DNA of 64,000 nt from Streptosporangiaceae bacterium (GTDB lineage: Bacteria; Actinomycetota; Actinomycetes; Streptosporangiales; Streptosporangiaceae): NCBI GenBank assembly GCA_035604275.1, contig DATNIU010000249.1, positions 2,587 through 66,586 of the forward strand. Direction: 5' to 3'. Each line of letters begins with the position of its first letter. The stretch's first letter is position 1. The notes under the pieces are model-generated. The model saw only the letters and a list, made by a program, of their open reading frames with translations, searched no databases and was not told the origin of the DNA. This document shows positions 9,679 through 37,237 of this stretch, in pieces. A program made the translations under genes and the position numbers.

Positions 9679-12156
9679 CTACATGAGGTTCTGCTGCCCC
9701 GACGCCTGCTCGTTGAAGTAATACGGGACCGGCCACTGGCCGGGAACCTGGGGCACCGGTGCCCGGCGCGGGCTGGTGGCCGGCCCGCGCAGGCCCGCGA
9801 GCTCGTCGGGGCTGACCGGTGCGCTGTTCAGCTCAAGCCCGGTGGCAGCGCGCAGCGCGCCGACGATCGCCGCCGTGGCGACGACGGTGGGTGACTCGCC
9901 GACGCCTTTGAGGCCGTACGGCGTGCCCGGCTCGGGTTCGGTGACGGCGGCAGTCAGCACCGGGGGGACGTCGAGCATGGTCGGAATGAGGTAGTCGGTG
10001 AACGACGGGTTGCGGATCAGGCCGTCCGCTACCTGGACTTCTTCCATCAGCGCCAGCCCGAGGCCCTGTGCCGTGCCGCCAGCCACCTGACCCTGGAGCC
10101 CGGCCGGGTTCATCACCCGGCCGACGTCCATCGCGGCCGCGATCTGGACCACCCGCGCCAGGCCGAGCTCGGCGTCTACCTCGACGACCGCCCGTTCAGC
10201 GGCGAAGGCGAATCCGGCGTGGATGTCCCCCTGGCCGCTGGCGTCGAACTCGGTGGTCGGGCGGTGGTGATAGACGGCAGCGCCGGTCACGGGCTCGGCG
10301 AGCAGGTCGCCGACGTCGGCCACCGGCGCTCCGCCTCGCATGATCATCCCGCCGGCCAGCGACAGGTCGCCGGCCTGGCCGGCCTGCTCTGCTAGCCCGG
10401 CCCGCTCGAACAGCCCGGCCCGCTCGAACAGCTCGGCCCGGATCCGCTGGCAGGCCAGCTGCACAGCACCGCCGGCCATGACGGACTGCCTTGAGGCCGA
10501 GGTCGATCCCGCGTTCCCGACCTCGGTGTCCGCGTCGTGCATGACCACATCGCCGATGCCGAGCTCGGTCCTGACGATCTGGGTCAGCACGGTGTAGAGG
10601 CCCTGGCCCATCTCGACCGCGGCGGTGTGGATCTCCGCGACCGGTCCGGCGGGCCCGGCCATCAGCGTGACCCTGGCTTCGGCCGCGTCATCGAACCCCT
10701 CGCTGAAGGCGAAGTTCTTGTATCCGACAGCGATCGCGACCCCCCGGCGGAGCCCCTCGCCGTGGGTGACGTTGCCGGTGCCCGCCGGGTAGCGCCGGGG
10801 GTCGCGGTGCAGCGGCGGCTCCTCCGCGGGCAGCGGGATGGCCATGCAGCGCTCGATCAGCTCACGCACCGGGGCGCTGCCGGTGATGACCTGGCCGGTC
10901 GGCAGGACCGAGCCCGGGCGCACCGCGTTGCGCAGCCTGAACTCGACCGGGTCCAGGCCGAGGCTAGCCGCGAGCTTGTCCATCTGCGCCTCGTGCGCGA
11001 AGCAGACCTGTGGTGTGCCGAAGCCGCGCATCGCCCCGCACGGCGGGTTGTTCGTGTAGACGACCGAGGCCTCGACCCGCACGTGCGGGACCTCATAGGG
11101 CCCGGCCGCGAACGTCGCCGCGTTGCCCACGACGGCCGGCGAGGACGACGTGTAGGCGCCGCCATCGAGGAGCAGCCTGGCATCGACCACCAGGAGCCTG
11201 CCGTCGGCGGACGCCCCGTGCCGCATCCAGATCCTGGCCGGGTGGCGGTGCACGTGCCCGTGGAACGATTCCTCGCGGCCCAGGCACATCTTCACCGGGC
11301 GGCCGGTCCGCAGTGCCAGCAGGCAGGCATGGATCTGAACGTGAATGTCCTCGCGCGACCCGAACGCCCCGCCGACGCCGGCCAGCGTCAGCCTGACCTT
11401 CTCGGCCGGCAGACCGAGGCAGGGCGCGATCTGCTCCGCGTCCACGTGCAGCCACTGCGCGGCCGCGTAGAGGTGAACACCGCCGTCCGCGTCGGGGACG
11501 GCCAGCCCCGCCTCCGGGCCGAGCGGCGCCTGATCCTGCATGGCCGTCTGGTAGTAACCTTCCACCCAGACGTCTGCGCCAGCGGTGTCCGGTTCACCAT
11601 GCACGATGTGCACGTGGCGCAGCACGTTGCCGAACGGGCGCAGCCGCGGCGCATCGGGCCGCAGCGCCGCCTCCATGTCGGCCAGCACGTCGAGCGGCGC
11701 CCAGTCCACGGCGATCAGGCCGATCGCCTCCCGTGCCTGCCGCTGGCTCTGCGCGGCGACCAGTGCCACGGCCTCCCCCTGATAGCGGACCACGTCCGCG
11801 GCCAGAACCGGCTGATCCGCGACGTTCAGGCCGAACGTGGGATGACCGGGAATGTCGGCCGCGAGCATGACCGCGTGCACGCCAGGACTGGCCAGCGCGG
11901 CGGAGGCGTCCACCGACCTGATCCGCGCATGCGCGTGCGGCGACCGCAGCACCGCGCCGTGCAGCATGCCATCGGCGCGCAGGTCGCTGGCATAGCTGAA
12001 CTCGCCGGTAACCTTCGGGACGCCGTCGATCCGCGGCGCGCTCGACCCCACCCCGGCCCGTGGTGACGCACGCCGTGGTGACGCACGCCGTGCTGACGCA
12101 CGCCGTGGAGACGCACGCCGTGCTGACTGAGCGAGCCCGGGCACCGATGCGTCCAT
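9679..12156 (-). CDS. Xanthine dehydrogenase/aldehyde oxidase family molybdopterin-binding subunit (stand-alone large subunit)
   Basis: PRIDGVPKVTGEFSYASDL...GGAFGSRED...PPCGAMRGFGTPQ...GVGESPTVVATAAIVGALRAATG. The start is ambiguous: 12219, 12156 (ATG, GAGG upstream) or GTG 12051 after the repeat array. Confidence 0.9.
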   Translation of the reverse strand: MDASVPGLAQSARRASPRRASARRASPRRASPRAGVGSSAPRIDGVPKVTGEFSYASDLRADGMLHGAVLRSPHAHARIRSVDASAALASPGVHAVMLAADIPGHPTFGLNVADQPVLAADVVRYQGEAVALVAAQSQRQAREAIGLIAVDWAPLDVLADMEAALRPDAPRLRPFGNVLRHVHIVHGEPDTAGADVWVEGYYQTAMQDQAPLGPEAGLAVPDADGGVHLYAAAQWLHVDAEQIAPCLGLPAEKVRLTLAGVGGAFGSREDIHVQIHACLLALRTGRPVKMCLGREESFHGHVHRHPARIWMRHGASADGRLLVVDARLLLDGGAYTSSSPAVVGNAATFAAGPYEVPHVRVEASVVYTNNPPCGAMRGFGTPQVCFAHEAQMDKLAASLGLDPVEFRLRNAVRPGSVLPTGQVITGSAPVRELIERCMAIPLPAEEPPLHRDPRRYPAGTGNVTHGEGLRRGVAIAVGYKNFAFSEGFDDAAEARVTLMAGPAGPVAEIHTAAVEMGQGLYTVLTQIVRTELGIGDVVMHDADTEVGNAGSTSASRQSVMAGGAVQLACQRIRAELFERAGLFERAGLAEQAGQAGDLSLAGGMIMRGGAPVADVGDLLAEPVTGAAVYHHRPTTEFDASGQGDIHAGFAFAAERAVVEVDAELGLARVVQIAAAMDVGRVMNPAGLQGQVAGGTAQGLGLALMEEVQVADGLIRNPSFTDYLIPTMLDVPPVLTAAVTEPEPGTPYGLKGVGESPTVVATAAIVGALRAATGLELNSAPVSPDELAGLRGPATSPRRAPVPQVPGQWPVPYYFNEQASGQQNLM
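10394..10440. repeat. In-frame 18-bp tandem duplication (AGCCCGGCCCGCTCGAAC x2.6) encoding FERAGLFERAGL inside the Mo subunit
   Basis: Read directly from the sequence. Confidence 0.9.
12056..12127. repeat. 15-bp tandem array (TGGTGACGCACGCCG, about 4.5 copies); each unit carries a CACG-N-CGTG palindrome
   Basis: Read directly. It encodes (RRASP)n if the upstream start is used; otherwise it lies in the 5' leader. Confidence 0.9.
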
Positions 12157-12317
12157 AGTTGCCTCACGGTACGGACGCCGGCCCGGGCGGTCCAGTGCCG
12201 AAGGTCCCGCCGGCACCACCGGACGACCCGTGACACTAACCGGAACCTGGACTTACACTCAGGCCAAACCGGGCAAACGACCAGGCGGTTATCCGTCAGG
12301 GCGCTCGGAGGACCACG

Positions 12318-14072
12318 GTGACGGCCCCGCAGCCTTGGAGGTACCCGGTGTCCGCACGCAGAGCCAATCCCCGCGTCCTTGCCGTCGCTCGCGGCGACGA
12401 GCCGGCCGACCTGCTGATCACCGGCGGCCGGGTCTTCGTGCCCGGCACCAGGGAGTGGATCGACACCGACCTCGCCGTGGCGGCTGGCGTGATCGCCGGC
12501 TGGGGCCCGCGCGAGGCACGCGAGGTTGCCGACGTCTCCGGCGCGGCCCTGACCCCGGGCTTCATCGACGCTCACATGCACCTGGAGTCGACCAAGCTCT
12601 GGGTCGATGAGTTCGTCAGGGCCGTGCTGCCGCATGGCACGACGGCGGTCGCCGCCGACCCGCACGAGATCGCCAACGTGTTCGGGGTCGCGGGCGTGGC
12701 GGCGCTGGCACAGGCCTCCCGCGGCCTGCCGTTCACCTTCGGGATCTGCGCGTCTAGCTGCGTGCCAGCGTCGCCGTTCGAGAGCCCGGGAGCGGAGGTC
12801 CACACCGCGGAGGTACGCAGGCTCTTCGACGAGCTCGGCGCGATCGGGCTCGCCGAGGTGATGAACTACCCGGGCGTCGTCGCCGGCGATCCCGAGCTGC
12901 TCGCGAAGATCGCCGCCGCCGGTGACCTTCGGGTGGACGGCCACGCGCCGGGACTGACCGGCCGGCAGCTTGACGCCTACCTGGCGGCCGGGGTCGAGTC
13001 CGATCACGAGTGCACGACGGCCGACGAGGCGGCGGAGAAGCGCCGCAAGGGCATGTGGATCTTCGCCAGGCAGGGCTCGGCGAGCAGGAACCTGGCGGCG
13101 CTGATCCCGCTCGTGCTCCAGCACGGGACCGAGCGAGTGGCGCTCTGCACCGACGACCGTGAGCCGGACACGATCTTCAGCGAGGGCCACGTCGACGACT
13201 GCGTCAGGCTGGCGGTCTCCTGCGGTGTCCGCCTGGAGGACGCTCTGGTGCTGGCGACATCCAACCCGGCCGGTTATCACAACTTCGATCACCTCGGCTG
13301 GCTGTCGCCCGGCTATCAGGCCGACGTGCTCTGCTTCGACTCACTCGACCGGCTGTCGCCGGTCATGGTCTATCAGGCGGGAACCCTGGTCGCCGAGCAC
13401 GGCCGCGCGATCGACGGCGCCGTGCCCGCCGCCCCGGCGCCCGCGTGGATGCGCCACTCGGTGCACCTGGCCGAGCCGCCCGGCCCTGCCGCCCTGACCC
13501 TGGCACCGCCGGCCGGCGGGCTTGCCAGGGTCATCGGGATCGAGCCGGACACGCTCTCGACCAGGCACCTGATCCTCGACGTGACACAAACCCCGGAGGG
13601 AATCGCCAGGATCGGGGTCGTCGAGCGCCATCACGAGACCGGCCGGATCGGCCTCGGCTACGTCCACGGCTTCGGGCTGGCCCGCGGCGCCATCGCCTCG
13701 ACCGTGGCGCACGACGCGCACAACTGCATGGTCGTCGGCGCCCTGGACGCGTCGGGGCCCGCCGACATGGCCTCGGCCATCGCCAGGCTGGCCGAGATCG
13801 GCGGCGGCCAGGTGGCGGTGCTCGACGGCCGCGTTATCGCCGAGGTGCCGCTGCCGGTCGGCGGGCTGATGAGCGATCGGCCGGTCGCCGCGGTGGCCGC
13901 GGAGGTCGAGGCCGTCGAGCACGCGGCGGCCACCGTGCTCGGCGTCGGCATCGCGACCCCGTTCATGCACCTGAGCTTCCTCGGCCTGTCGGTGATCCCC
14001 GAGCTGAGGATCACCGATCGCGGCCTGGTCGACGTGAACAGGTTCGAGCTGACCGCGGTGGCCGCGAGCTGA
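12318..14072 (+). CDS. ade: Adenine deaminase
   Basis: GFIDAHMHLESTKLWVDEFVRAVLPHGTTAVAADPHEIANVFG...SSCVPASPFESPGA...HECTTADEAAEKRRKGMWI; length 584 aa. Confidence 0.9.
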   Translation: MTAPQPWRYPVSARRANPRVLAVARGDEPADLLITGGRVFVPGTREWIDTDLAVAAGVIAGWGPREAREVADVSGAALTPGFIDAHMHLESTKLWVDEFVRAVLPHGTTAVAADPHEIANVFGVAGVAALAQASRGLPFTFGICASSCVPASPFESPGAEVHTAEVRRLFDELGAIGLAEVMNYPGVVAGDPELLAKIAAAGDLRVDGHAPGLTGRQLDAYLAAGVESDHECTTADEAAEKRRKGMWIFARQGSASRNLAALIPLVLQHGTERVALCTDDREPDTIFSEGHVDDCVRLAVSCGVRLEDALVLATSNPAGYHNFDHLGWLSPGYQADVLCFDSLDRLSPVMVYQAGTLVAEHGRAIDGAVPAAPAPAWMRHSVHLAEPPGPAALTLAPPAGGLARVIGIEPDTLSTRHLILDVTQTPEGIARIGVVERHHETGRIGLGYVHGFGLARGAIASTVAHDAHNCMVVGALDASGPADMASAIARLAEIGGGQVAVLDGRVIAEVPLPVGGLMSDRPVAAVAAEVEAVEHAAATVLGVGIATPFMHLSFLGLSVIPELRITDRGLVDVNRFELTAVAAS

Positions 14073-14150: not shown

Positions 14151-15635
14151 TCAGGCTTCGGGCAGCACCGGAGTCGCCTCGCCCTCGGCCCGGACGGTCC
14201 TGGCAGCCAGCACGTAATACACGATGCCGCCGACGATCAGCCCCATGAACACGCTGAAGTCCGAGCCGAACGAACCGCCGATCCGGCTGGCGAGCGGCCC
14301 CTCGTACGACAGCGCGGTGGAGCTGAACGCGTTCAGCCATACCGCGGCCGCGATCATCCCGACCACCTGGGCGATGATCGCCGGCCAGAAGACGCCGCCG
14401 CGGCGGTAGTACCGGCCGCGCTCGTTCAGCAGGCCGCCGGTGTCGTAGCGGTTCTTCCGCAGCCACGAGTCGATCAGGTAGATCGCGCACCACGGCCCGA
14501 GCCAGACGATGATGAACAGCAGGAAGGCCGCGAGCAGGCTGAAGAACTTTCCGGAGAAGATCGCGTATGCCGTGAACCCGCCGCACACCACCGTGTCGAT
14601 CGCGACGCACTGCACTCGCTTCAGCTTGGGGATCAGGCTCTGCAGCGTGACGCCAGACGAGTACAGGTCGATGGTGTTGATCGCGAACAACTGGAAGATC
14701 GCGACGATCAGGAACGGGACGATGAACCAGGACGGGAACCCCTGGGTCAGGCCGGCGATGCCCTGGACGCTCGTGATGCCGGGCACGCCGGTAGCTATCG
14801 CCGCTCCGAGTACCTCAAGCAGCGCCGAGGCGATGCCCCCGCCGAGCGCCACTGCCATCACGATCCGCTTCCTGTCGGCGCCCGGCGGCAGATAACGGGA
14901 GTAGTCGTTGGCGTTCTCGGTCCAGCCGAGGCCTCCGGCCGAGATGACCACCGCGAGGAAGATCATCACCGAGCCCCAGGGCGCCCCGTGCGCGGGCACA
15001 TGCAGGTTCACCTTCGACGTCGTCAGGATCGCCATGATCACGAACAGGGCGACGAACGGCAGGGTCAGCCAGCGCAGCACCTTCAGCACGGCAGCGTGAC
15101 CGAGGGTCGGCAGGAGCGCCTGGATCGCTACCGCGATGACAATGATGACGATCTTGGCCGGAGTGCCGGACACCAGCTTGTACCGGTCGCCGATCGCGAT
15201 CACGGCCAGCACGACGAACGCGATGCCCTCGATCTCGAATCCGACCTGAGTCACCCAGTTGAAGAACGACGGCAGCCGGTTCCCGTGCGGCCCGAACGGA
15301 GCGCGGCTGATCGCGAAGGTTGTGGTACCTGCCCGCGGCCCCTGCAGACTAGCCAGGCCGGTCAGAACGTAGAAGAAGTTGCCGACAATGATCATGGTGA
15401 CGGCCTGGGCGAACGACAGCCCGAAAATGAGCACCGCGAGCGCGCCATAGAGCACGAACTCGACATTCCACACCGCTCCGGCCCACATCCAGAACAGGCC
15501 GGACGGCTTTCCCCACCGATGATCGAGCGGTACGTACTCGATCCCGCGCTGCTCGATGCTGGCGACCGGCGGCGGTACGCCGCCGTCGAGCACCGCGCTT
15601 GACCCGGCGCTGCCCCGCTCCGCTGCGCTTCCCAT
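14151..15635 (-). CDS. NCS1-family purine/cytosine permease
   Basis: 494 aa with about 12 TM segments: RGIEYVPLDHRWGKPSGLFWMWAGAVWNVEFVLYGAL...NANDYSRYLP. Confidence 0.9.
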   Translation of the reverse strand: MGSAAERGSAGSSAVLDGGVPPPVASIEQRGIEYVPLDHRWGKPSGLFWMWAGAVWNVEFVLYGALAVLIFGLSFAQAVTMIIVGNFFYVLTGLASLQGPRAGTTTFAISRAPFGPHGNRLPSFFNWVTQVGFEIEGIAFVVLAVIAIGDRYKLVSGTPAKIVIIVIAVAIQALLPTLGHAAVLKVLRWLTLPFVALFVIMAILTTSKVNLHVPAHGAPWGSVMIFLAVVISAGGLGWTENANDYSRYLPPGADRKRIVMAVALGGGIASALLEVLGAAIATGVPGITSVQGIAGLTQGFPSWFIVPFLIVAIFQLFAINTIDLYSSGVTLQSLIPKLKRVQCVAIDTVVCGGFTAYAIFSGKFFSLLAAFLLFIIVWLGPWCAIYLIDSWLRKNRYDTGGLLNERGRYYRRGGVFWPAIIAQVVGMIAAAVWLNAFSSTALSYEGPLASRIGGSFGSDFSVFMGLIVGGIVYYVLAARTVRAEGEATPVLPEA

Positions 15636-18861: not shown

Positions 18862-19601
18862 CAGCCGATCTCCCCGAGAACCCGCCTGGTGAGCACGGCC
18901 GCTATCGCGCGGCGGTACTCGCTCGACCCGCGGAAGTCGCCGGGCGGATCGAGATCGCCGGCCGCGTCCCGCTCCGCGGTCACGAGCACGGGAGCGGCCG
19001 CCACGCCGGTCAGGGCCAGCCGCCGCTGCCCGTCCGGCCTGCGCCGGGCGACCGCGGCGACGATCGGCCGGTCAGCCGGAGTGCGGGCCGTCCTGGCCGC
19101 GGCGGTGACGCCGCCGGTCTCGACGGCCACGGCCGTGATGATCCGGCCTGCCAGCGGCGAGCGGTCAGCGAGCAGCGCGGCGAGCGAGCGGTCATGCTCG
19201 CCGTCCCGGCCGGCCAGCCTGACCGTCCCGCCGTGTACCAGGAGCGCTGCCAGGAGCTCGCTGGACGGATCGGCGGTGGCCACGCAGCCGCCGACGGTTG
19301 CCATGGCCCGCAGGGTGCTCGGCTGCTCGCGGCGGGCCGCCTCCCGGATGGCGGCCGGGACCCGGGCGTCGTCGGCCAGCCGCTGGAGAGTCACGGTGGC
19401 GCCGATCAGGAGCCCGTCCGCGCCGTCGCGCTCGACGGCGCCGGTCGGCAGCGCCTGGAGGTCCACCACCACGACGGGCCCGGCCGGCCGGGCCGCGTTC
19501 ACCTTCGTCCCCCCGCCGATCACGACGGCCCCGGGACGGTCAAGGCACGCGAGCGCCTCGCTCAGCGTGGCTGGACGCAGGTACTCCGACACTCTGCTCA
19601 T
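18861..19601 (-). CDS. FAD-binding subunit of a molybdenum hydroxylase (short, YgfM/CoxM-like)
   Basis: YLRPATLSEALACLDRPGAVVIGGGTKV...LIGATVTLQRL...LRAMATVGGCVATADPSSELLAALLVHG...FRGSSEYRRAIAAVLTRR. Abuts the XdhD-like gene. Confidence 0.8.
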   Translation of the reverse strand: MSRVSEYLRPATLSEALACLDRPGAVVIGGGTKVNAARPAGPVVVVDLQALPTGAVERDGADGLLIGATVTLQRLADDARVPAAIREAARREQPSTLRAMATVGGCVATADPSSELLAALLVHGGTVRLAGRDGEHDRSLAALLADRSPLAGRIITAVAVETGGVTAAARTARTPADRPIVAAVARRRPDGQRRLALTGVAAAPVLVTAERDAAGDLDPPGDFRGSSEYRRAIAAVLTRRVLGEIG

Positions 19602-28879: not shown

Positions 28880-29857
28880 ATGCAGACTCATCTTCGCGGA
28901 CGCGACCTCATCGACCTCCAGGAATGGACCAGGGACGAGATCAGCACGCTGCTCGACGTCGCGTTCGCGCTCAAGCGCGAGCGGGCGCTCGGCCAGCCGC
29001 ACCCGCACCTGAGGGACAAGGTCCTCGCGATGCTGTTCTTCTTCCCGAGCACCCGCACCAGGGCATCGTTCGAGGCGGGCATGGCCCAGCTCGGCGGGCA
29101 CGCCCAGTTCATCGAGAGCCGGACCACCCAGATCGCCCACGGCGACACCGCGAAGGAGATCGGCGAGATACTCGGCAGGTACAACGACGGCCTCGCGATC
29201 CGGCATGTCGACTGGCAGCAGGGCAACCGCTACCTCCGCGACGTCGCCGAGGCGAGCCGGGTGCCCGTGCTCAACATGCAATGCGACATCTACCATCCGC
29301 ACCAGGCGCTGGCCGACCTGATGACGATCATCGAGCGGCTCGGCGATCCTCGCGGTCGCACCGCCACCATCAGCTGGGCGTACGCGTCCAGCTACGTCAA
29401 GCCGATCAGCGTCCCGCAGAGCCTGGCACTGCTGCTGCCGCGGTTCGGGATGAACGTGCGGCTGGTCCATCCGCCCGAGTTCACGCTGATGCCCGAGATC
29501 GTGGAGCAGGCCAGGCAGAACGCGCGGCTGGGACGGGCCGGCTTCGAGATCCTTGACGACTTCGACGAGGGCATCCGCGGCACCGACGTCGTCTACGCCA
29601 AGAGCTGGGGCGCGCTGCTCACCACCCCGGACGAGTCGCAGGGCGCCAGGATCATCGACTCCTACCGGGACTGGATCACCGACGAGCGGCGGATGGCGAC
29701 GGCGTCAGAGGACGCCGTCTTCATGCACCCGCTGCCGGCCGACCGGAACATCGAGGTCACCGACGGCGTGATCGACGGGCCGCGGTCGGCCGTCTACGAC
29801 GAGGCGGAGAACCGGCTGCACGCCCAGAAGGCCGTGATGGCCCTCACGATGAGCTAA
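28880..29857 (+). CDS. Ornithine-carbamoyltransferase-like enzyme with altered specificity motifs
   Basis: FPSTRTRASFE, YHPHQALADL, DVVYAKSWG (SMG in OTC), FMHPLPADRNIEVTDGV (HCLP in OTC), DEAENRLHAQKAVMAL. Confidence 0.85.
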   Translation: MQTHLRGRDLIDLQEWTRDEISTLLDVAFALKRERALGQPHPHLRDKVLAMLFFFPSTRTRASFEAGMAQLGGHAQFIESRTTQIAHGDTAKEIGEILGRYNDGLAIRHVDWQQGNRYLRDVAEASRVPVLNMQCDIYHPHQALADLMTIIERLGDPRGRTATISWAYASSYVKPISVPQSLALLLPRFGMNVRLVHPPEFTLMPEIVEQARQNARLGRAGFEILDDFDEGIRGTDVVYAKSWGALLTTPDESQGARIIDSYRDWITDERRMATASEDAVFMHPLPADRNIEVTDGVIDGPRSAVYDEAENRLHAQKAVMALTMS

Positions 29858-29873: not shown

Positions 29874-30821
29874 ATGGACAAGCGGACGGCCGTCGTCGCG
29901 ATCGGCGGCAACTCCCTGATCAAGGACAAGTTTCACGAGACCATCCGGGACCAGTACATCGCCGCCAGCGAGACCTGCCGCCACATCGTGACGATGATCT
30001 CCGAAGGCTGGCGGGTCGCCATCACCCACGGCAACGGCCCCCAGGTCGGCTTCATCCTCAGGCGCTCCGAGCTCGCCGCCCACGAGCTGCATGAGCTGCC
30101 TCTCGATGTCTGCGGCGCCGACACCCAGGGCGCCATCGGCTATGAGCTTCAGCAGAACCTGTACAACGAGTTCCGGCGGCACGGCATCGACAAGGACGCG
30201 GTCACGCTGGTCTGCCAGACCGAGGTGGCCGCGGACGACCCGGCGTTCGCGAAGCCGAGCAAGCCGATTGGCTCGTTCATGGACGCCGAGCAGGCTGACC
30301 GGCGCCGGGCCGAAGGCTGGGACATCATGCAGGACGCCAACCGCGGCTGGCGCCGGGTGGTCGCCTCGCCGCAGCCGCTGCGGATCGTGGAGCTGCCGTC
30401 GATCAGGCGGCTGCTGGACGCCGGAACCGTCGTCATCGCCGCCGGCGGCGGCGGCATCCCGGTCGTGGCTGACGAGTCAGGCAGCCTGCGGGGCGTCGCC
30501 GCGGTCATCGACAAGGACCTGGCCTCGGCGCTGCTCGCCAATCAGATCGACGCCGACCTGTTCATCATCTCGACCGCCGTGGAGAAGGTCGCGCTCGAGT
30601 TCGGAACCCCGCGGCAGCGCTGGGTGGACCACCTGACCCTGGCGGAAGCCAGGGGATATCTGGCGGAGGGGAAGCACTTCGCGGCCGGCAGCATGGGCCC
30701 CAAGATCCAGGCTGTCATCGCCTACCTCGATGGCGGCGGCCGGGAGGCGCTGATCACCGACCCCGACAACCTGGAGCGCGCACTGGCCGGCCAGACCGGC
30801 ACGCGGATCACCCCTGACTGA
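29874..30821 (+). CDS. arcC: Carbamate kinase (ArcC/YqeA-like)
   Basis: VVAIGGNSL...VAITHGNGPQVGF...GGGGIPVV...GVAAVIDKDLASALLA...FAAGSMGPKIQA. Confidence 0.9.
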   Translation: MDKRTAVVAIGGNSLIKDKFHETIRDQYIAASETCRHIVTMISEGWRVAITHGNGPQVGFILRRSELAAHELHELPLDVCGADTQGAIGYELQQNLYNEFRRHGIDKDAVTLVCQTEVAADDPAFAKPSKPIGSFMDAEQADRRRAEGWDIMQDANRGWRRVVASPQPLRIVELPSIRRLLDAGTVVIAAGGGGIPVVADESGSLRGVAAVIDKDLASALLANQIDADLFIISTAVEKVALEFGTPRQRWVDHLTLAEARGYLAEGKHFAAGSMGPKIQAVIAYLDGGGREALITDPDNLERALAGQTGTRITPD

Positions 30822-32376
30822 CTGCCGGCAGGCCGGACGGCACGCCGGCCATCATCAGGCCGATCGCCTCTCTGCTGGTCGTCCGCGGATCGGCCTCGCT
30901 GATGATCATTCCCTCGTAGATGACGAGAATCCGGTCGGAGATGGCCATCACCTCGTCGAGGTCCTCGGAGATGACAAGCACGGCGGTACCGTCTGCCCGC
31001 TGGCTGACCAGCCGCTGGTGGATGTAGGCCGAGGCCGCCACGTCGATGCCGCGGGTGGGCTGAGCGACGAGCAGGACGGCCGGCGAGCCGGACAGCTCGC
31101 GGGCCATGATGAGCTTCTGTATGTTGCCGCCGGACAGGTTGCGGGCGGGTGTGTCCAGGCCCGGTGTCCGGATGTCGAACTCGGCGACGAGCTGCCGGCA
31201 GTGCTGGCGGATCGCCCGGTTGCGCAGGAATCCGAAGCGGGCGTATGCCCGGTCGGCGTTGGCCACCAGGATCAGGTTCTCGGCCACGGTCAGGTCGCCG
31301 ATGACCGCATCGCGCATCCGTTCTTCCGGCACGTAGGCCAGCCCGGCGTCGCGGACGGCCCGCGGGTGCCGCCCGGTGACGTCGGCCCCGGCGATCTCGA
31401 TCCGTCCGCTGACCGGCTGGCGGAGGCCGGCGATCGCCTCCGCGAGCTCCCGCTGCCCGCTGCCGGATACCCCGGCGATGCCGACGATCTCGCCCGAGCG
31501 CACCAGCAAGGACAGCCCGCGCACGGCCTGCACGCCACGATCACCGTTCACCCGCAAGTCGCTTACGGACAGCCCGACCGGGCCCTGCTGCCGGTCGGGC
31601 GGCACCCTGACCGTGGCGACCTGATGCCCGACCATCATGTCGGCCAGCTCGTCCATGGTCGTGTCGGCGGTGCCGACCGTAGCGATCTTCCGGCCGCTGC
31701 GCAGCACGGTGATCCGGTCCGACAGCTCGAGCACCTCGTGGACCTTGTGCGAGATGAAGACCAGCGACAGGCCGTTCCGCACCAGCGCGGTGAGCACGGC
31801 GAACAGATCGCGGACCTCCTGCGGGGTCAGCACCGCTGTCGGCTCGTCGAGCACGAGCAGCGAGACGTCCCGGTACAGGGCCTTGATGATCTCAACGCGC
31901 TGGCGCTCGCCCACCGAGAGCTGCCAGATGTACGCGGCCGGATCTACCTTCAGCCCGTAGTCATGCGATAGCTGGCGGATGCGCGCGGACACCCGGCCGA
32001 GGTCGGTCAGCGGGCCGCGCGATGACCTGACGCCCAGCGCGACGTTCTCCGCGACGGTCAGCGTCTGTACCAGCATGAAGTGCTGGTGGATCATGCCGAT
32101 GCCCTGCTCGATGGCCACTGCCGGCGAGGTGATGGTCACCCGGTCGCCGCGCAGCCGGATCTCGCCCTCGTCGGGCTTGTAGAGACCGTAGAGCACCCGC
32201 ATCAGGGTGCTCTTGCCGGCGCCGTTCTCGCCGAACAGGGCATGGATCTCACCGGGCGCCACGTCGAAGTCCACGTGGTCGTTGGCGAGCACCCCGGGGA
32301 AGCGCTTGGTAATGCCGCGCATCTCCAGGAGCGCTGGCTGGCCTGCCGAGGCGCTTCCCCGGGCTGCTGCTGTCAT
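30808..32376 (-). CDS. ABC transporter ATP-binding protein with two NBDs (BMP/nucleoside-sugar type)
   Basis: GENGAGKSTLM, LSVGERQRVEI, LVLDEPT, second LSGGNIQK. Start set to ATG 32376 (GGGAG upstream) instead of the track's 32544. Confidence 0.9.
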   Translation of the reverse strand: MTAAARGSASAGQPALLEMRGITKRFPGVLANDHVDFDVAPGEIHALFGENGAGKSTLMRVLYGLYKPDEGEIRLRGDRVTITSPAVAIEQGIGMIHQHFMLVQTLTVAENVALGVRSSRGPLTDLGRVSARIRQLSHDYGLKVDPAAYIWQLSVGERQRVEIIKALYRDVSLLVLDEPTAVLTPQEVRDLFAVLTALVRNGLSLVFISHKVHEVLELSDRITVLRSGRKIATVGTADTTMDELADMMVGHQVATVRVPPDRQQGPVGLSVSDLRVNGDRGVQAVRGLSLLVRSGEIVGIAGVSGSGQRELAEAIAGLRQPVSGRIEIAGADVTGRHPRAVRDAGLAYVPEERMRDAVIGDLTVAENLILVANADRAYARFGFLRNRAIRQHCRQLVAEFDIRTPGLDTPARNLSGGNIQKLIMARELSGSPAVLLVAQPTRGIDVAASAYIHQRLVSQRADGTAVLVISEDLDEVMAISDRILVIYEGMIISEADPRTTSREAIGLMMAGVPSGLPAVSQG

Positions 32377-32392
32377 CGTGTCCGCTCCCGCC

Positions 32393-33424
32393 TCAGTTCG
32401 TCGGCGGTGTGATGGCGCCGCTGATGATCTCGGCGGCGATGTGCTGTCCGGCGGCCTTGATCGACGCCGGCAGCGGATAGGACGGGTTGTAGACGATCTT
32501 CTCGCCGTTGTTGCCGAGCGTGATCGTGTAGGTCGCCCCGCCAAGCACGCCGCCCCGGATCGCCGTGATGATCTGCCTGATGACGCCCGTCCAGTCGTAG
32601 ACCTGGGACGCGACGACCTCGGTTGGCGCCAGCGACGACTGATCCCACTGGGTACCGAACCAGGCCACCTTGTCGCTCTTGGCCACGCCGATCGCCCCGA
32701 CGACCGACTGCGAGCTCCCGGTCAGCACGTCGGCCTTCTCGGACACGTAGGCCTTAGCAGCGGTAGCCATCAGCGTGTCGTCGCTGAACGAGCCGGTAAA
32801 GCTGACGTGCACGGTGGCTGACTTGTCGGCGGCCAGGGCGCCGGCCTTGAATCCGACCACATAGAGGTGGGCGTCACCTACGTCGATGGGGCCGATGACG
32901 CCGAGCACCTTGCTCTTGCTGAGCTTGGCCGCGACGTAGCCCTCTACGTAACCGCCTTCCTGAGAGTTCGCCTGGTAGGCGAAAACGTTCTTCAGCCCGT
33001 ATGTCACCCCCGCTGTGCCCCACGCGAAGGACGTCTTCGGGAACTGCGGGGCGAGCTGCTCGACCGTGCCGCCGAACTGCGAGCCGTGCGCGATGACCAG
33101 GTTGTAGCCCTCGGACGCGTACTGCCGCATCGCGTTGGCGGCGTCCGTGACATTGAACAGGTTGTCGGAGACCGAGAACGTGAAATGCAGCGGTCCCGCC
33201 AGAGATGAGACCGCCGCGTACATGGACTGGCTGAACGCCAGGTCGTTCCGCAGGCTCGGTTCGATCAAGGCGACCTTGAGTGTCGGCACGGACGACGAGG
33301 TGCTAGACGGCGACCCGCTGGTACTGGTCGGCGTCGAGCTTGAGTTTGAGCTGCAGGCCGCGGCCGTGAGCGCGACGGCCACGCCAGCAACTAGCATGAC
33401 CGGTCGCCGCAGGTGGCGTTTCAT
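32393..33424 (-). CDS. BMP-family (Med/PnrA-like) ABC substrate-binding lipoprotein, nucleoside-type
   Basis: MKRHLRRPVMLVAGVAVALTAAAC lipobox, Ser/Thr linker, and a BMP-like body (GVIGPIDVGD...SFTGSFSD). GGAGG lies 5 nt upstream of ATG 33424. Confidence 0.9.
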   Translation of the reverse strand: MKRHLRRPVMLVAGVAVALTAAACSSNSSSTPTSTSGSPSSTSSSVPTLKVALIEPSLRNDLAFSQSMYAAVSSLAGPLHFTFSVSDNLFNVTDAANAMRQYASEGYNLVIAHGSQFGGTVEQLAPQFPKTSFAWGTAGVTYGLKNVFAYQANSQEGGYVEGYVAAKLSKSKVLGVIGPIDVGDAHLYVVGFKAGALAADKSATVHVSFTGSFSDDTLMATAAKAYVSEKADVLTGSSQSVVGAIGVAKSDKVAWFGTQWDQSSLAPTEVVASQVYDWTGVIRQIITAIRGGVLGGATYTITLGNNGEKIVYNPSYPLPASIKAAGQHIAAEIISGAITPPTN

Positions 33425-33507
33425 GGCTTCCTCCAATAGCAGGCGAGATGGGACCTAGGTTTCGGCAATTGAGCTGCGGGCTCGCTGGTCGGTCGGTACG
33501 ACACGGG

Positions 33508-34440
33508 TCACCCGCCTCTTTCGTAGGGCTTGCCGAGGACCGCGGGCTGCCGGAAGCGGCGCGCCACCGAGACCAGGGCGAGGACGGTCAGCACGGCTGG
33601 TGCCATCGCGGCGATGTCGGACGCAGAGGCCGGGATGATGCCGAGCGTCTTCCACGTCACGACCACCGAGCCGACGATGCCGTAGAGCAGTGATCCGGCC
33701 ATCACGCCGAGCGGTCGCCAGGCGCCGAAGTACACCAGCGCGACGGCTATGAAGCCTTCGCTGTTGGTGAGGTCCTCCTGGAAGATCCCGATCAGCATGA
33801 GCAGGGTCGCGCCCGCCAGGCCAGCCAGGGCGCACCCGAGGATGACCGTCGAGTAGCGGATGCGGGTGACGCTCACCCCGACGGTGTCCGCCGCGGCGGG
33901 GTTCTCGCCTACCGCTCGAATCTTCATCCCGTACGTGGTGCGGTTGAGCACGAAGGTGAGCACTGGCACGAGCAGGAACGCCAGGTAGACCAGCCAGTTC
34001 TGGGTGAAGAACATGCGGCCGATGTCGGGGATGCTGTGCAGCAGCGGGATCGGCACCGCGGGGAGCGCCTGGATCGTGACGGGGGACGGGAAGAGCCTCA
34101 GCAGCAGCACGTTGGTCAGCCCGAGGCCGAAGAGGAAGACGCCGATCCCGCTGATTCCCTGCTCCGCCTTGAGCGTGACGCTCACGAACGCGGTGATCAG
34201 GCCCATCACCAGGCCGATGCCGGTGCCGGCCGCCGTGGCAAGCACCAGGCTGCCCGTCTTGGCCGCGACGAAGTAGGCGCCGAACGCGCCGAGCAGCATG
34301 ATGCCGTCGACGCCCAGGTTGACGACGCCGCTGCGCTGTCCCATGGTCTCGCCGAGCGCCGCGAGCAGGAAGGGCGTTGCCAGCTGAATGCCGGCCGCCA
34401 CGGTGGCGATCAGCACGGCGGCGGTGAAGAAGTGGCTCAT
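33508..34440 (-). CDS. ABC transporter permease (BMP-system, second permease)
   Basis: MSHFFTAAVLIATVAAGIQLATPFLLAALGETMGQRSGVVNLGVDGIMLLGAF. ATGA overlap with the upstream permease. Confidence 0.85.
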   Translation of the reverse strand: MSHFFTAAVLIATVAAGIQLATPFLLAALGETMGQRSGVVNLGVDGIMLLGAFGAYFVAAKTGSLVLATAAGTGIGLVMGLITAFVSVTLKAEQGISGIGVFLFGLGLTNVLLLRLFPSPVTIQALPAVPIPLLHSIPDIGRMFFTQNWLVYLAFLLVPVLTFVLNRTTYGMKIRAVGENPAAADTVGVSVTRIRYSTVILGCALAGLAGATLLMLIGIFQEDLTNSEGFIAVALVYFGAWRPLGVMAGSLLYGIVGSVVVTWKTLGIIPASASDIAAMAPAVLTVLALVSVARRFRQPAVLGKPYERGG

Positions 34441-35615
34441 GCGGTCGCGCCCTTCCGGGCACCATGGGGCGCCGCGCGCGCATCGGGCCCGGCGGTCACC
34501 ACCGCCAGCGCCCGTGCGCGGGCACGCCGGCGCAGGTATCCCACGGAGACAACGAGGACGACCACCAGTCCGTTGATGGCGGTCACCAGGTCGGCGGGCA
34601 CGCCGGTGACCACCTGCATCGAGGTGCCTCCCACCAGCAGCCCGGCGAAGAGGAACGAGGTGACGATCGTCCAGAGCGGCTGCAGGTCGGCGAACAGGGC
34701 CACCACGATGCCGTTGAAGCCCGCGTTGCCGGTGAATCCGGTCAGAGTCCCGTCGGTGACCATCCGGTGCGAGATGCTGCCGATGACCAGCATGGCCCCG
34801 GCGATTCCGGACAGCGCGCCGGCCAGCGTCATAGCCAGCGTCATGGTGCGCCTGACGGACATCCCCGCGTACCTGGACGCGTCGCGCGACAGACCGACGG
34901 AGCGGATCCTGAAACCGATGCTGGTGCGCCACAGCAGCACGTAGACGGCAACAGCGAGCAGCACCGCGATGAGCACCCCGAGGTGCAGCTGGGTTCCGCC
35001 GATCAGCGTCGGAAGCCAGGAGTTCGGTGACAGCAGCCTGGTCTGCGGGATGAGCCCGCCCACCGCGTAGCCCGAGTGCGCCACCATCGGCCCGGCGAGC
35101 ATGTAGTTCATGAACTGGACGGCGACCAGGTTGAGCATGATCGTCGTCAGGATCTCGTTGACGTTGAAATAGGCCTTGAACGCACCGGGGATCGCGCCCC
35201 AGATGGCCCCGCCGGCGGCGCCGGCCAGCAGCACAAGCGGCACAAGGAGAATCGCCGGCAGCCCGGGCACGGCGAGCGCCGTGGCGGTGCCTGCCAGGCC
35301 GCCCATGGCGATCTGGCCCTCACCGCCGATGTTCAGCATGTTGGCGCGGAACGCGATGCAGATCCCGGCGCCGACCAGCAGCAGAGGTACCGCCTTCACG
35401 GCGGTGCTGGTCAGAGCATAGGTGCCGGTGAAAGCACCGGTCAGCATGGCGTGGTATCCGGTTAGCGGGTTGGTGCCGAAAGCCAGCATCAACGCGGCGC
35501 CGATCAGGAGCGCCACAATGGCCGCGGCGGGCAGCGCGAACCAGCTGAGGAGCAGATCCCGCGGATCGCCCAGTCGGGCGCCGCGCGGCCAGTGGACCAG
35601 CTTCAGCCAGTTCAT
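34437..35615 (-). CDS. ABC transporter permease (BMP-system, first permease)
   Basis: AVPLLLVGAGICIAFRANMLNIGGEGQIAMGG..., multi-TM. Confidence 0.85.
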   Translation of the reverse strand: MNWLKLVHWPRGARLGDPRDLLLSWFALPAAAIVALLIGAALMLAFGTNPLTGYHAMLTGAFTGTYALTSTAVKAVPLLLVGAGICIAFRANMLNIGGEGQIAMGGLAGTATALAVPGLPAILLVPLVLLAGAAGGAIWGAIPGAFKAYFNVNEILTTIMLNLVAVQFMNYMLAGPMVAHSGYAVGGLIPQTRLLSPNSWLPTLIGGTQLHLGVLIAVLLAVAVYVLLWRTSIGFRIRSVGLSRDASRYAGMSVRRTMTLAMTLAGALSGIAGAMLVIGSISHRMVTDGTLTGFTGNAGFNGIVVALFADLQPLWTIVTSFLFAGLLVGGTSMQVVTGVPADLVTAINGLVVVLVVSVGYLRRRARARALAVVTAGPDARAAPHGARKGATA

Positions 35616-35704: not shown

Positions 35705-35869
35705 CTCATCGAAGAGCCAAAGGTCCCGGAAACGGGCACGGCGCCGGTCATGTCCGCTGCTCTGACCCCAGTTCGTGGCAGCACGGACCGCGTCCAGCCC
35801 GAAGCCTCGGTACGCGAGCGTGACCCGCCCCGTGGCCGGCGTGCGGCCAGTCGATCCCGCGCTAGGCGG

Positions 35870-37237
35870 TCAGAGCTGCGGCAAGCCCCGCCGCAGGAAC
35901 TGGCCGGCTCCCGGCCGGCCGCGGAACCCGTCAGCGTCGAGCAGCACCTCGCCCCGCCGCATGACCAGCTCCGGGCGGCCGTGAACGGTGCTGCCCTCGT
36001 ACACCGAGTAGTCGACCGCGCTGTGGTGCGTCGCGGCGGACAGCGTCCTGACCGCCCGCGGGTCGAAGACGACCAGGTCAGCGTCCGCGCCCGGCACGAT
36101 CGCCCCCTTGCGCGGGTAGAGCCCGAAGAGCCTGGCCGGGGCGGTCGCGGCGACATCGACCCAGCGGTTCAGCGAGATCTCGCCGCGGTACACGCCCTCG
36201 TGCAGCAGGGAGAGCCGCTCCTCGACGCCGTGCAGGCCGTTCGGGATCCGGGTGAAGTCATCCTGGCCCAGCGCCTTCTGCCCGGTCGTGAACGGGCAGT
36301 GGTCGGTGGCGACCACGTCGAGGTCGCCGCGCCGGATCCCGTGCCACAGTGCCTCGTGCGTGCTGGCCGGGCGCAGCGGCGGAGAGCAGACGTACCTGGC
36401 AGGCTCCGGTCCCGACAGGGCCGACTCGTCGAGGTACAGGTACTGCGGGCAGGTCTCGGCATAGACCGGGCGGCCGCGGTCGCGGGCCCGGTGGACCGCG
36501 TCCAGCGCCTCCGCGGCCGACAGGTGCGCGATGTAGACCGGCGCGCCGGCCAGCTCGGCGAGAACGATCACCCGCGCCGTGGCCTCGCCTTCGAGGATCG
36601 CCGGCCGGCTGAGCGCGTGGTTCGCGGCGCCGGTCCGGCCGCTGGCCACGAACTCGGCGCGCAGCACCTCGATCGGCCCGCCGTTCTCGGCGTGCACGGC
36701 GGTCAGGACGCCGAGCTGGCCGGCCCGGCGGAGCATACGGAAGATCGCCGCGTCGTCCACCATGTAGACGCCCGGATAGGCCGTGAACACCTTCACCGAC
36801 GTCACGCCGGCCGAGACCAGCTCGGCAAGCTCGGCCAGCACCCGATCGTCGACCTCGGAGATCATCATGTGGAATCCGTAGTCGACGTGGGCGCGCCCGG
36901 CCGCCCTGGCCTGCCATCGGGCGAGCCCGGCGAGCAGCGGCTCCCCCCGGTCGTGCCCGGCGTAGTCGATGATCGTCGTCGTGCCGCCCCAGGCAGCGGC
37001 GGCCGTGCCGGTGGCGAAGTCGTCACAGGCCACCGTGCCCGAGGTCGGAAGTTCCATGTGGGTGTGCGCGTCAACGCCGCCAGGGATCACGTAGCGGCCC
37101 GCGGCGTCGATCGTCAGGTCGGCTCGCGCGCCGAGCCGGCGGCCGACGGCCTCGATCTGCCCGTCGACCACCAGCACGTCCGCCCGCGCGGTGTCGGCCG
37201 CCGTGATCACCGTCCCGCCCGCTATCAGCGTCCTCAT
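35870..37237 (-). CDS. Dihydropyrimidinase/D-hydantoinase (HyuA-like cyclic amidohydrolase)
   Basis: MRTLIAGGTVITA...VIPGGVDAHTHMELP...GGTTTIIDY...SVKVFTAYPG...AVHAENG...IAHLS...DHCPF. Start set to ATG 37237. Confidence 0.9.
   Translation of the reverse strand: MRTLIAGGTVITAADTARADVLVVDGQIEAVGRRLGARADLTIDAAGRYVIPGGVDAHTHMELPTSGTVACDDFATGTAAAAWGGTTTIIDYAGHDRGEPLLAGLARWQARAAGRAHVDYGFHMMISEVDDRVLAELAELVSAGVTSVKVFTAYPGVYMVDDAAIFRMLRRAGQLGVLTAVHAENGGPIEVLRAEFVASGRTGAANHALSRPAILEGEATARVIVLAELAGAPVYIAHLSAAEALDAVHRARDRGRPVYAETCPQYLYLDESALSGPEPARYVCSPPLRPASTHEALWHGIRRGDLDVVATDHCPFTTGQKALGQDDFTRIPNGLHGVEERLSLLHEGVYRGEISLNRWVDVAATAPARLFGLYPRKGAIVPGADADLVVFDPRAVRTLSAATHHSAVDYSVYEGSTVHGRPELVMRRGEVLLDADGFRGRPGAGQFLRRGLPQL

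Follow-up and report, generated by a model that had tools for sequence, protein, structure and literature searches.

The stretch of DNA analyzed here, 64,000 nucleotides of contig DATNIU010000249.1 (hereafter the window), has a G+C content of about 70% throughout and comes from a Streptosporangiaceae metagenome-assembled genome (MAG). Between positions 9679 and 37237 it carries a set of genes that most probably encodes a route from purines to pyruvate, a variant of the reductive uric acid (2,8-dioxopurine) pathway built by nonorthologous replacement of known enzymes. The case is made from homology, conserved residues, and synteny, and from these we infer each of the catalytic assignments.

The reductive urate pathway was discovered in 2025, when it was presented as a trait of gut anaerobes, and it was reconstituted that year in Escherichia coli and Clostridium (PMC12507026; bioRxiv 10.1101/2025.04.24.650524). 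Urate is converted to 2,8-dioxopurine by XdhD-YgfM in E. coli and by a selenium-dependent XdhAC, the 2,8-dioxopurine dehydrogenase (DOPDH), in Clostridium sporogenes; YgfK dearomatizes the 2,8-dioxopurine ring, a role filled in C. difficile by UacX; and SsnA opens the ring to ureidomethylhydantoin, from which HyuA gives 2,3-diureidopropionate. YgeW phosphorolyzes one ureido group, YqeA turns the resulting carbamoyl phosphate into ATP, YgeY hydrolyzes the second ureido group, and YgeX converts 2,3-diaminopropionate to pyruvate (PMC12507026; 10.1101/2025.04.24.650524). The coupling of YgfK to SsnA is biochemically required in E. coli, where it pulls an unfavorable reduction forward, and SsnA was the marker enzyme chosen by Li et al. 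(PMC12507026). A selenium-cofactor trait (SelD, YqeB, YqeC) has been reported for all gut strains with a urate cluster, and a published commentary holds the pathway to be limited to obligate or facultative anaerobes, naming as open questions which electron donor XdhAC uses, the stereochemistry, and the order in which the ureido groups are cleaved. The original prediction, made from the letters of the window, said of the E. coli block that its individual steps were poorly defined; that statement is outdated, and with the steps solved the roles of the window genes are much easier to assign.

Genes were called by third-position GC content (GC3), and the open reading frames (ORFs) were then scanned with Pfam and NCBIfam/TIGRFAM models; the proteins of the E. 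coli K-12 locus served as queries in BLASTP and tblastn searches against the window. All the genes named in the original prediction were found at about the same coordinates, and its permease ORF at 33455-34483 was replaced by the frame at 33508-34440 on the minus strand. The region reads as follows (Moco, molybdenum cofactor; PLP, pyridoxal phosphate; LLM, luciferase-like monooxygenase; ATCase, aspartate carbamoyltransferase).

9679-12219, minus strand: PucD846, PucD-type xanthine dehydrogenase molybdenum (Mo) subunit, 846 aa (TIGR03196 pucD, 837.5 bits; cutoff, 783.65)
12318-14072, plus strand: adenine deaminase (TIGR01178, equivalog, 495 bits; cutoff, 472.5; Pfam Adenine_deam_C)
14151-15635, minus strand: NCS1-family nucleobase:cation symporter (PF02133, 5.9e-37)
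15919-18861, minus strand: Mo980, XdhD-like Fe-S and Moco fusion, 980 aa (top NCBIfam model TIGR03313, under cutoff)
18861-19601, minus strand: FAD246, YgfM-like FAD-binding subunit, 246 aa (PF00941, PF03450; top NCBIfam model TIGR03312)
19771-21288, plus strand: PLP516, divergent CysK/CBS-like fold-type II PLP enzyme, 505 aa from the probable start at ATG 19771 (the ORF opens at 19738; weak PALP match)
21285-22673, plus strand: PLP462, PLP enzyme resembling threonine synthase, threonine deaminase, and serine racemase (PALP, 3.2e-41)
22670-25276, plus strand: Mo868, Fe-S and Moco fusion without an FAD domain, 868 aa (TIGR03311, 978 bits; cutoff, 830)
25273-26760, plus strand: SsnA-like amidohydrolase, 495 aa (NF005540, 398 bits; cutoff, 444; TIGR03314, 386 bits; cutoff, 455.5)
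26757-27797, plus strand: LLM-class oxidoreductase, Mer-like (PF00296, 1.1e-67)
27828-28868, plus strand: CT346, ATCase-like carbamoyltransferase (TIGR00670, 243.8 bits; cutoff, 236.95); start codon uncertain, with another ATG at 27915
28880-29857, plus strand: CT325, compact YgeW-like carbamoyltransferase (under all NCBIfam cutoffs)
29874-30821, plus strand: carbamate kinase (NF009007, 380 bits; cutoff, 266; TIGR00746, 359.4 bits; cutoff, 358.25)
30808-32376, minus strand: ATPase of a BMP-type ABC importer with two ABC domains (PF00005 twice); the ORF reaches 32544, and ATG 32376 is the likely start
32393-33424, minus strand: BMP/PnrA-family substrate-binding lipoprotein, probably for purines or nucleosides (PF02608, 4.7e-39)
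33508-34440, minus strand: ABC permease 1, 310 aa (NF047928, 184.6 bits)
34437-35615, minus strand: ABC permease 2 (PF02653, 2.8e-29)
35870-37237, minus strand: HyuA-like D-hydantoinase/dihydropyrimidinase (TIGR02033, 552 bits; cutoff, 393)

The importer genes together span 30808-35615 on the minus strand. The overlapping ORF at 33455-34483 was discarded as a gene, having a GC3 of 0.50 against 0.93 for the 33508-34440 frame and no Pfam match.

Six of the nine E. coli pathway enzymes have recognizable homologues in the window. In BLASTP comparisons XdhD matches Mo980 over its full length (36% identity, 544 bits), YgfM matches FAD246 (29%), SsnA the SsnA-like amidohydrolase (34%), YgeW CT325 (33%, 184 bits), HyuA the hydantoinase (44%, from residue 53, which is ATG 37237), and YqeA the carbamate kinase (49%). 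YgfK, YgeY, and YgeX have no such counterpart, and these three, like YqeB, YqeC, and MocA, gave zero tblastn matches across the 64 kb. The identities of 29 to 49% support the proposal that this is a purine or urate cluster akin to the E. coli ygeW-ygeX-hyuA-yqeA-ssnA-ygfM-xdhD region with other accessories, and the homologies likewise favor its predicted ATP-yielding end in carbamoyl phosphate and carbamate kinase. Both clusters place the FAD subunit before the Moco subunit, have a reductase-type gene abutting ssnA, and carry purine transporters and a purine deaminase alongside. The window differs in having an F420-type LLM in place of YgfK, a second, ATCase-like carbamoyltransferase in place of YgeY, and two other fold-type II PLP enzymes in place of YgeX, and it adds an Fe-S/Moco enzyme of the Clostridium type, while YqeB, YqeC, MocA, and the sigma54 regulator are missing from its 64 kb. 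The host is a high-GC soil actinomycete, in contrast to the gut facultative anaerobe E. coli. That components of this pathway are interchangeable is already apparent from the Clostridium systems, in the pairs YgfK/UacX and YgeW/UacY, UacY being a hydrolase that can take the place of YgeW plus carbamate kinase.

The absences extend to the competing routes. Among the ORFs called outside the cluster, Pfam scans detected no domains of uricase, hydroxyisourate hydrolase, 2-oxo-4-hydroxy-4-carboxy-5-ureidoimidazoline decarboxylase, allantoinase, or allantoicase, nor any SelD or XdhC-type domain. The window therefore lacks the classical aerobic urate genes, as well as genes like YgfK, YgeY, SelD, YqeB, and YqeC, as had been predicted on both counts, and with them the selenium-cofactor trait of published reductive urate clusters. 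A search of all 64 kb against Rfam at gathering thresholds gave no match, and hence no known purine, xanthine, or guanidine riboswitch.

The plus-strand genes from PLP516 to carbamate kinase form one operon. The five from 19738 to 27797 are joined, as originally described, by four 4-nt stop/start overlaps (GTGA, GTGA, ATGA, and ATGA), and the operon carries on through CT346, CT325, and carbamate kinase with gaps of 30, 11, and 16 nt. On the minus strand, the Mo980 and FAD246 genes share a TGATG stop/start junction, a sign of translational coupling.

Gene neighborhoods were compared, a check that the original prediction had put forward. The SsnA-like protein of the window is 100% identical to a protein from a Streptosporangiaceae MAG. 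Among 185,579 species genomes, a pattern scan picked out 468 loci encoding an SsnA relative, and the best 80 of the 468 were analyzed, with locus ORFs assigned by their best BLASTP match to the window and E. coli proteins; presence was counted in the 38 loci that extend at least 9 kb on each side of SsnA. The best 80 belong to Actinomycetes (Streptosporangiaceae, Micromonosporaceae, Nocardioides, Intrasporangium, Fodinibacter, and Frankiaceae), Acidimicrobiia, Thermoleophilia/Gaiellales, Armatimonadota, one Chloroflexia MAG, and one Binatia MAG. An LLM homologue (73 to 90% identity) is present in 36 of the 38 loci and lies directly after SsnA in 33; PLP462 and CT325 each occur in 35, PLP516 and CT346 in 34, the hydantoinase in 20, and carbamate kinase in 18. 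Such clustering of the same core set in 34 to 36 of 38 loci, over several phyla, is far beyond chance. YgfK, YgeX, YgeY, and YqeC are found in none of the 38 and YqeB in one, and the first three are absent from all 80 loci. Across loci the LLM and both carbamoyltransferases are 72 to 92% identical, above SsnA itself (53 to 74%). When the unassigned ORFs of the 80 loci were clustered, no other recurrent oxidoreductase, peptidase, or lyase emerged; only Fe-S/FAD subunits of xanthine dehydrogenase, an ABC system like NitT/TauT, and an XdhC-type chaperone appeared, in a few loci. In Acidimicrobiia loci, NCS1 permease homologues are repeatedly found close to the cluster.

In a Nocardioides MAG the system is a single 10-gene operon (amidohydrolase, PLP, PLP, SsnA, LLM, carbamoyltransferase, carbamoyltransferase, FAD subunit, Fe-S/Moco, hydantoinase), which links components that the window divides between its two strands. 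Operons of this Nocardioides type are headed by guanine-deaminase-like amidohydrolases. Divergently upstream of the 10-gene operon (locus L083, positions 1-7006; Nocardioides sp. MAG, JBGAHF010000004.1) lie an adenosine deaminase gene and a complete NAD-type formate dehydrogenase set with the Pfam domains FdsG, FdsB, FdsA, and FdsD. In older work cited by Li et al., an Enterococcus strain needed formate for complete urate degradation (PMC12507026), and the formate dehydrogenase of this locus may supply reductant. In a Streptosporangiaceae MAG (L033, JBEKIF010000061.1) the XdhD-like gene has beside it a homologue (47% identity) of E. coli YqeB, the marker for the selenium-cofactor trait, and some actinobacterial carriers may thus use selenium-activated Mo enzymes.

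The step that most distinguishes this cluster is the reduction of 2,8-dioxopurine. There is no reductase of the YgfK/UacX type: the called ORFs of the window include no PF01180 protein (the UacX/PydA-like family in Pfam), and the slot beside SsnA is filled by the F420-type LLM, whose start overlaps the SsnA stop by 4 nt (ATGA). This overlap and the adjacency of the two genes across loci mirror the YgfK-SsnA pairing of E. coli. The 17 best NCBIfam matches of the LLM are all F420 families, led by Mer, none of them above cutoff, and its 10 best PDB matches are all F420 enzymes, the top one being Mer 1z69 (134 bits over residues 24-324); FMN-dependent LLMs score no higher than 37 bits. We regard the protein as a Mer-like enzyme that is probably F420H2 dependent, and because it is translationally coupled to SsnA, stands consistently beside it, and has no other reductase for company, we propose it as the 2,8-dioxopurine reductase that replaces YgfK/UacX. 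Mer is a chemically apt relative, transferring hydride to an electrophilic carbon beside a nitrogen, although its context is C1 metabolism and that of the window LLM is purine catabolism. The organism uses F420, as indicated by another LLM at 2637-3659 on the minus strand that passes TIGR03557, the F420 glucose-6-phosphate dehydrogenase family (313 versus 210 bits). A further LLM-class oxidoreductase is encoded at 39127-39972 on the minus strand.

The LLM could instead act on a later intermediate, or as an FMNH2/O2 monooxygenase, leaving dearomatization to an outside enzyme or to a Mo enzyme. In keeping with this, the LLM class includes FMN-dependent monooxygenases, the window protein reaches no curated F420 subfamily cutoff, and the Chloroflexia (L059) and "Candidatus Binatia" (L013) loci have the rest of the cluster with no LLM within 10 kb. 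We nevertheless judge such a role quite improbable, since the closest relatives of the LLM in sequence and structure are all F420-dependent reductases or dehydrogenases with Mer first, its overlap with and position after SsnA reproduce the YgfK-SsnA coupling, and no other oxidoreductase recurs across the loci. The LLM also stands beside SsnA whichever Mo enzyme occurs, even in loci that lack Mo868, and on this ground we rejected the idea that it is no more than an electron-transfer partner for the FAD-less Mo868. Each of the Chloroflexia and Binatia loci has SsnA and Mo868 along with the PLP pair and both carbamoyltransferases.

The reductase exchange has a precedent in print. Li et al. remarked, without experiments, that a putative F420 LLM (PF00296) near SsnA replaces YgfK/UacX in Chloroflexota clusters (PMC12507026), and our literature search for biochemical work on an F420-dependent 2,8-dioxopurine/yanthine reductase returned only this remark. 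Most carriers of the LLM variant described here are Actinomycetota, with Armatimonadota also represented, and the sole Chloroflexia locus, in contrast to that remark, has no LLM within 10 kb. The neighbor counts of Li et al. were made by Pfam family, with every PF00291 neighbor scored as YgeX and every PF00185 neighbor as YgeW (PMC12507026), whereas the PF00291 neighbors found here are not YgeX orthologues and the PF00185 neighbors include a paralogue that is not YgeW.

The SsnA-like protein itself shares long SsnA-specific motifs, such as LGTDGIG, with E. coli SsnA, and its next-best family scores only 142 bits, against 398 for NF005540 and 386 for TIGR03314. Residues of about 175 to 220 contain an insertion of roughly 40 residues, of low complexity and rich in Pro, Gly, Ser, and Arg, that relatives of about 453 aa do not have; the insertion probably explains the shortfall of the window protein on the two model cutoffs, and the relatives without it carry the JGI label SsnA.

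The three Mo hydroxylases of the original prediction are all present, and all keep the catalytic Glu of the xanthine oxidase family, but they are not equivalent: one is XdhD-like, one resembles the DOPDH of Clostridium, and the third is a conventional xanthine dehydrogenase subunit of the PucD type. Positions equivalent to F1009 and A1078 were located by motif rather than by alignment to bovine xanthine oxidoreductase, using what we take to be the motif positions of those two residues. The PucD846 clade has an aromatic residue (Tyr or Phe) at the motif-mapped F1009 position, as in E. coli XdhA. PucD846 has no neighboring FAD or Fe-S genes; tblastn with E. coli XdhB found no match in the window, and E. 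coli XdhC matches there only the N termini of Mo868 and Mo980. Another locus (L020) has the same orphan pucD, divergent from adenine deaminase, while most loci have an xdhB-xdhC-pucD trio.

The Mo980 clade shares with XdhD the residue Glu606 (17 of 17 members), a Met at the motif-mapped F1009 position, and the AYAS-S motif; Glu606 is the residue of XdhD highlighted by Li et al. (PMC12507026). We accordingly place Mo980 with FAD246 as a candidate for the E. coli kind of oxidoreductase acting between urate and 2,8-dioxopurine. In the Mo868 clade, Val and Thr occupy the motif-mapped F1009 and A1078 positions, and the DOPDH signature given by Liu et al. is F1009V with A1078T/S (10.1101/2025.04.24.650524). 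Like DOPDH, Mo868 is a fusion of Fe-S and Moco domains with no FAD domain, its Moco domain beginning at residue 306, compared with 307 in C. sporogenes DOPDH. The third-best PDB match of Mo868, and the nearest among non-AOR structures, is the Se-dependent nicotinate dehydrogenase, which fits the placement of DOPDH by Liu et al. From its architecture, its TIGR03311 match, and these signature residues, we consider Mo868 a candidate orthologue of the Clostridium-type DOPDH; clostridial DOPDH differs in depending on SelD for selenium activation and in being active only anaerobically, no selenium genes being found in the 64 kb around Mo868. At the level of homology, then, the window has candidate enzymes for interconverting urate and 2,8-dioxopurine. 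Of the 38 loci, 21 have only Mo868, 9 only Mo980, 3 both, and 5 neither, and Mo868 sits immediately upstream of SsnA in 23 loci; the window is among the few with both. The way in which Mo868 and Mo980/FAD246 mostly alternate fits two interchangeable enzymes for this step.

The original prediction was to be abandoned if profile models put its SsnA-like, hydantoinase, and carbamoyltransferase genes in ordinary pyrimidine or arginine families with canonical residues. By score this holds for the hydantoinase and CT346; on inspection it does not. That the hydantoinase passes TIGR02033 is not telling, because E. coli HyuA passes the same model (675 bits, compared with 552); by sequence the window protein is a HyuA-type hydantoinase, and no reductive pyrimidine pathway accompanies it, PydA and PydC domains being absent, like those of arginine deiminase, from the called ORFs of the window in Pfam scans. 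Nor is the 7-bit margin of CT346 on the ATCase model telling, because Lys84 and Arg229 are missing in all 56 clade members that were aligned with E. coli PyrB, ArgI, and YgeW. CT346 retains the carbamoyl phosphate motifs (STRTR, R105, HPTQ) and the residues R167/T168, of which R167 is the alpha-carboxylate Arg, as PyrB does; the changes K84 to Y, S80 to R, R229 to P, and HPLP to HSLP are invariant in the 56, and the Gln231 equivalent is ambiguous in the alignment. Judged by its aspartate-binding residues, CT346 is not a canonical ATCase, and, in contrast to PyrB, it is always found in a urate-type cluster beside a YgeW-like paralogue and carbamate kinase, not in a pyr operon.

CT325 shares with YgeW a Ser at the R167/N167 position and a Lys at the D231 position of ornithine carbamoyltransferase. 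It lacks DxxxSMG, has HPLP in place of HCLP, and scores 253 bits on the ornithine carbamoyltransferase model (cutoff, 306), so that its sequence is not that of an ornithine carbamoyltransferase; on the YgeW equivalog model it scores 180 bits against 453, and the YgeW insertions are lacking. Neither the window nor any of the 80 loci has a match to YgeY, the M20 peptidase-type hydrolase. Because CT346 resembles an enzyme forming N-carbamoyl-alpha-amino acids and stands in for YgeY, it would be expected to take the 2-ureido group, leaving the 3-ureido group to CT325, in agreement with the cleavage order proposed by Liu et al.

These residues, together with the synteny, effectively refute the notion that ordinary pyrimidine and arginine genes have merely come to lie by chance next to xanthine dehydrogenases. 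It would account for the score of the hydantoinase on the dihydropyrimidinase model, the 7 bits by which CT346 clears that for ATCase, and a canonical carbamate kinase. It is opposed by the recurrence of the core set over several phyla (34 to 36 of 38 loci), the single operon of Nocardioides, the departures from canonical residues in both carbamoyltransferases (Lys84 and Arg229 in CT346; DxxxSMG and HCLP in CT325), the match of E. coli HyuA to the same dihydropyrimidinase model, and the lack of PydA, PydC, and arginine deiminase among the called ORFs.

The last step is assigned to the two PLP enzymes. E. coli YgeX has no BLASTP match in the window at an E value of 1e-3 or below and so is unrelated at this level to PLP516 and PLP462, and neither protein matches the diaminopropionate ammonia-lyase models TIGR03528 and TIGR01747, on which YgeX scores 651 to 697 bits. 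PLP516 has the invariant motifs AHK118, STGN, and GSAGT, and its AlphaFold2 (AF2) model (pLDDT, 83.8) has cysteine synthases and cystathionine beta-synthase as top Foldseek matches (TMt, 0.74-0.80). PLP462 has invariant C10/C13/C27/H37, GSHK138, SCGN, and GGGA, and its AF2 model (pLDDT, 85.8) is closest in Foldseek to 2zsj, TdcB, and serine racemase. Both keep the Schiff-base Lys, the Asn loop, and the phosphate loop, and both are modeled with the fold of beta-eliminating or beta-replacing enzymes. PLP516 would form part of a YgeX replacement, and PLP462 is a candidate diaminopropionate eliminase or racemase. The N-terminal Cys10/Cys13/Cys27/His37 set of PLP462 (21285-21400), probably a zinc ribbon, is invariant across 25 aligned homologues.

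The diaminopropionate of siderophore and tuberactinomycin pathways is the product of CysK-like PLP enzymes, and Streptosporangiaceae are rich in secondary metabolism. One might for these reasons read the region as a biosynthetic cluster for a metabolite derived from diaminopropionate or albizziin, with the CysK-like protein acting as SbnA or VioB does and the carbamoyltransferases running in the synthetic direction. That reading is very hard to sustain. Pfam scans showed no nonribosomal peptide synthetase, polyketide synthase, tailoring, or export genes in the region; purine importers, adenine deaminase, three Mo hydroxylases, SsnA, a hydantoinase, and carbamate kinase are present instead; and the cluster is conserved in phyla not known for such products.

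The catabolic route from purines to pyruvate can be set out as a model. The NCS1 permease and the BMP-type ABC importer would bring purines into the cell, where adenine deaminase (adenine to hypoxanthine) and the PucD-type xanthine dehydrogenase (hypoxanthine and xanthine to urate) would funnel them to urate. The XdhD/YgfM-like pair, the DOPDH-like Mo868, or both would remove the 6-hydroxyl of urate to give 2,8-dioxopurine. The Mer-like LLM, in place of YgfK/UacX, would then transfer a hydride from F420H2 onto the pyrimidine ring of 2,8-dioxopurine, and the SsnA-like amidohydrolase, kinetically coupled to it, would trap the product by opening the ring to ureidomethylhydantoin, which the HyuA-like hydantoinase would convert to 2,3-diureidopropionate. 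CT346 would probably phosphorolyze the alpha (2-)ureido group and CT325 the other, with carbamate kinase using carbamoyl phosphate and ADP to form ATP and carbamate, which would break down to CO2 and NH3; phosphorolysis of both ureido groups would give up to 2 ATP per urate, not 1. PLP516 and PLP462 would turn 2,3-diaminopropionate, possibly as the D isomer, into pyruvate and ammonia, the least certain of the steps.

Several points weigh against this model. The SsnA, XdhD, YgfM, and YgeW homologues all fall below their NCBIfam equivalog cutoffs, so that the identity of the substrate could differ. At 169 bits the LLM falls short of the Mer cutoff (276), as it does of that for every curated F420 LLM subfamily, its presumed use of F420 rather than FMN follows family resemblance, and no LLM lies within 10 kb in the Chloroflexia and Binatia loci. 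The residue signature of the Mo enzymes depends on our presumed mapping of the bovine positions, and the two PLP enzymes exceed the need of a simple YgeX replacement. The 64-kb window lacks SelD, YqeB, and YqeC, whereas the published DOPDH is selenium dependent and active only anaerobically. The hosts, including Streptosporangiaceae and Nocardioides, are probably aerobes, for which a literature search gave no confirmation.

Some of these points would be accommodated if the same enzyme logic served another substrate, such as xanthine, an 8-oxoguanine or 8-oxoadenine derivative, or a pterin, with the Mo enzymes working oxidatively and the LLM and SsnA opening a different ring. The SsnA-, XdhD-, and YgeW-like proteins are just 33 to 36% identical to the E. 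coli enzymes and under equivalog cutoffs, Mo980 retains an Arg where XdhD has Gln (the XdhA-R350 position), Mo hydroxylases usually act oxidatively in aerobes such as the hosts probably are, and the Nocardioides-type operons begin with guanine-deaminase-like proteins. We consider another substrate unlikely, given that the SsnA-specific motifs are strongly conserved, that both Mo paralogues carry substitutions associated with the formation of 2,8-dioxopurine, and that a hydantoinase, two ureido-cleaving transferases, and beta-eliminating PLP enzymes fit a C3 unit bearing two ureido groups, such as a 2,8-dioxopurine skeleton would yield.

A broader proposal can be made, one that we put forward tentatively and with somewhat less than even confidence: that an O2-tolerant, probably selenium-independent urate pathway operates in aerobic, F420-producing soil bacteria (many Actinomycetota, and Armatimonadota), using a new F420H2-dependent 2,8-dioxopurine reductase to dearomatize the ring, yielding 2 ATP per urate through two dedicated carbamoyltransferases that phosphorolyze both ureido groups, and ending in a hitherto undescribed PLP pair that acts on D-diaminopropionate. 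The replacement of YgfK by an LLM is already in print for Chloroflexota alone (PMC12507026); in the literature searched we found no description of the other replacements, of the wide distribution in Actinomycetota, or of the probable aerobic setting. Should the proposal prove true, the pathway would extend to a large and mostly aerobic part of the biosphere, comprising soil Actinomycetota and other phyla, the statement that limits it to obligate or facultative anaerobes would be overturned, and coenzyme F420 would gain a new physiological role in purine and nitrogen recycling. The pairing of an ATCase-like with a YgeW-like transferase bears on the disputed order of ureido cleavage and would, in that event, be independent comparative evidence. 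The variant predicts three new enzyme activities, and the predictions are testable in cultured carriers, among them Nocardioides taihuensis CGMCC 4.7318, Nocardioides sp. T2.26MG-1, and Fodinibacter luteus JCM 17809. A reductase linked to F420 or NAD(P)H, without selenium or the O2-sensitive Fe-S protein YgfK, could aid the engineering of uricolytic probiotics or enzymes. There is also a hazard for annotation, in that CT346 would be automatically named aspartate carbamoyltransferase, Mo868 "selenium-dependent xanthine dehydrogenase," and the PLP enzymes "cysteine synthase" and "threonine synthase."

Elsewhere in the window, two neighboring genes at 6450-8310 on the minus strand encode proteins in which the YbjQ_1 domain, putatively heavy-metal binding, is duplicated. 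The gene at 58126-59451 on the minus strand encodes a full-length bacterial serpin (PF00079, 7e-67) and is followed by two small ORFs, at 59452-59940 and 59937-60518, with no family match. At 43492-45275, also on the minus strand, the genes for two tandem DUF4438 proteins share an operon with those for a D-2-hydroxyacid dehydrogenase and an oxidoreductase of the GFO/IDH/MocA family, adjoining a GntR/FCD regulator and a peptide/opine-type ABC transporter in what appears to be an uncharacterized catabolic cluster. Between the hydantoinase and the LLM-class gene beyond it, at 37830-39025 on the minus strand, a DUF6247 protein lies by a weakly HEPN/AbiV-like one (25 bits, under cutoff), and the two could be a small toxin-antitoxin or defense pair.

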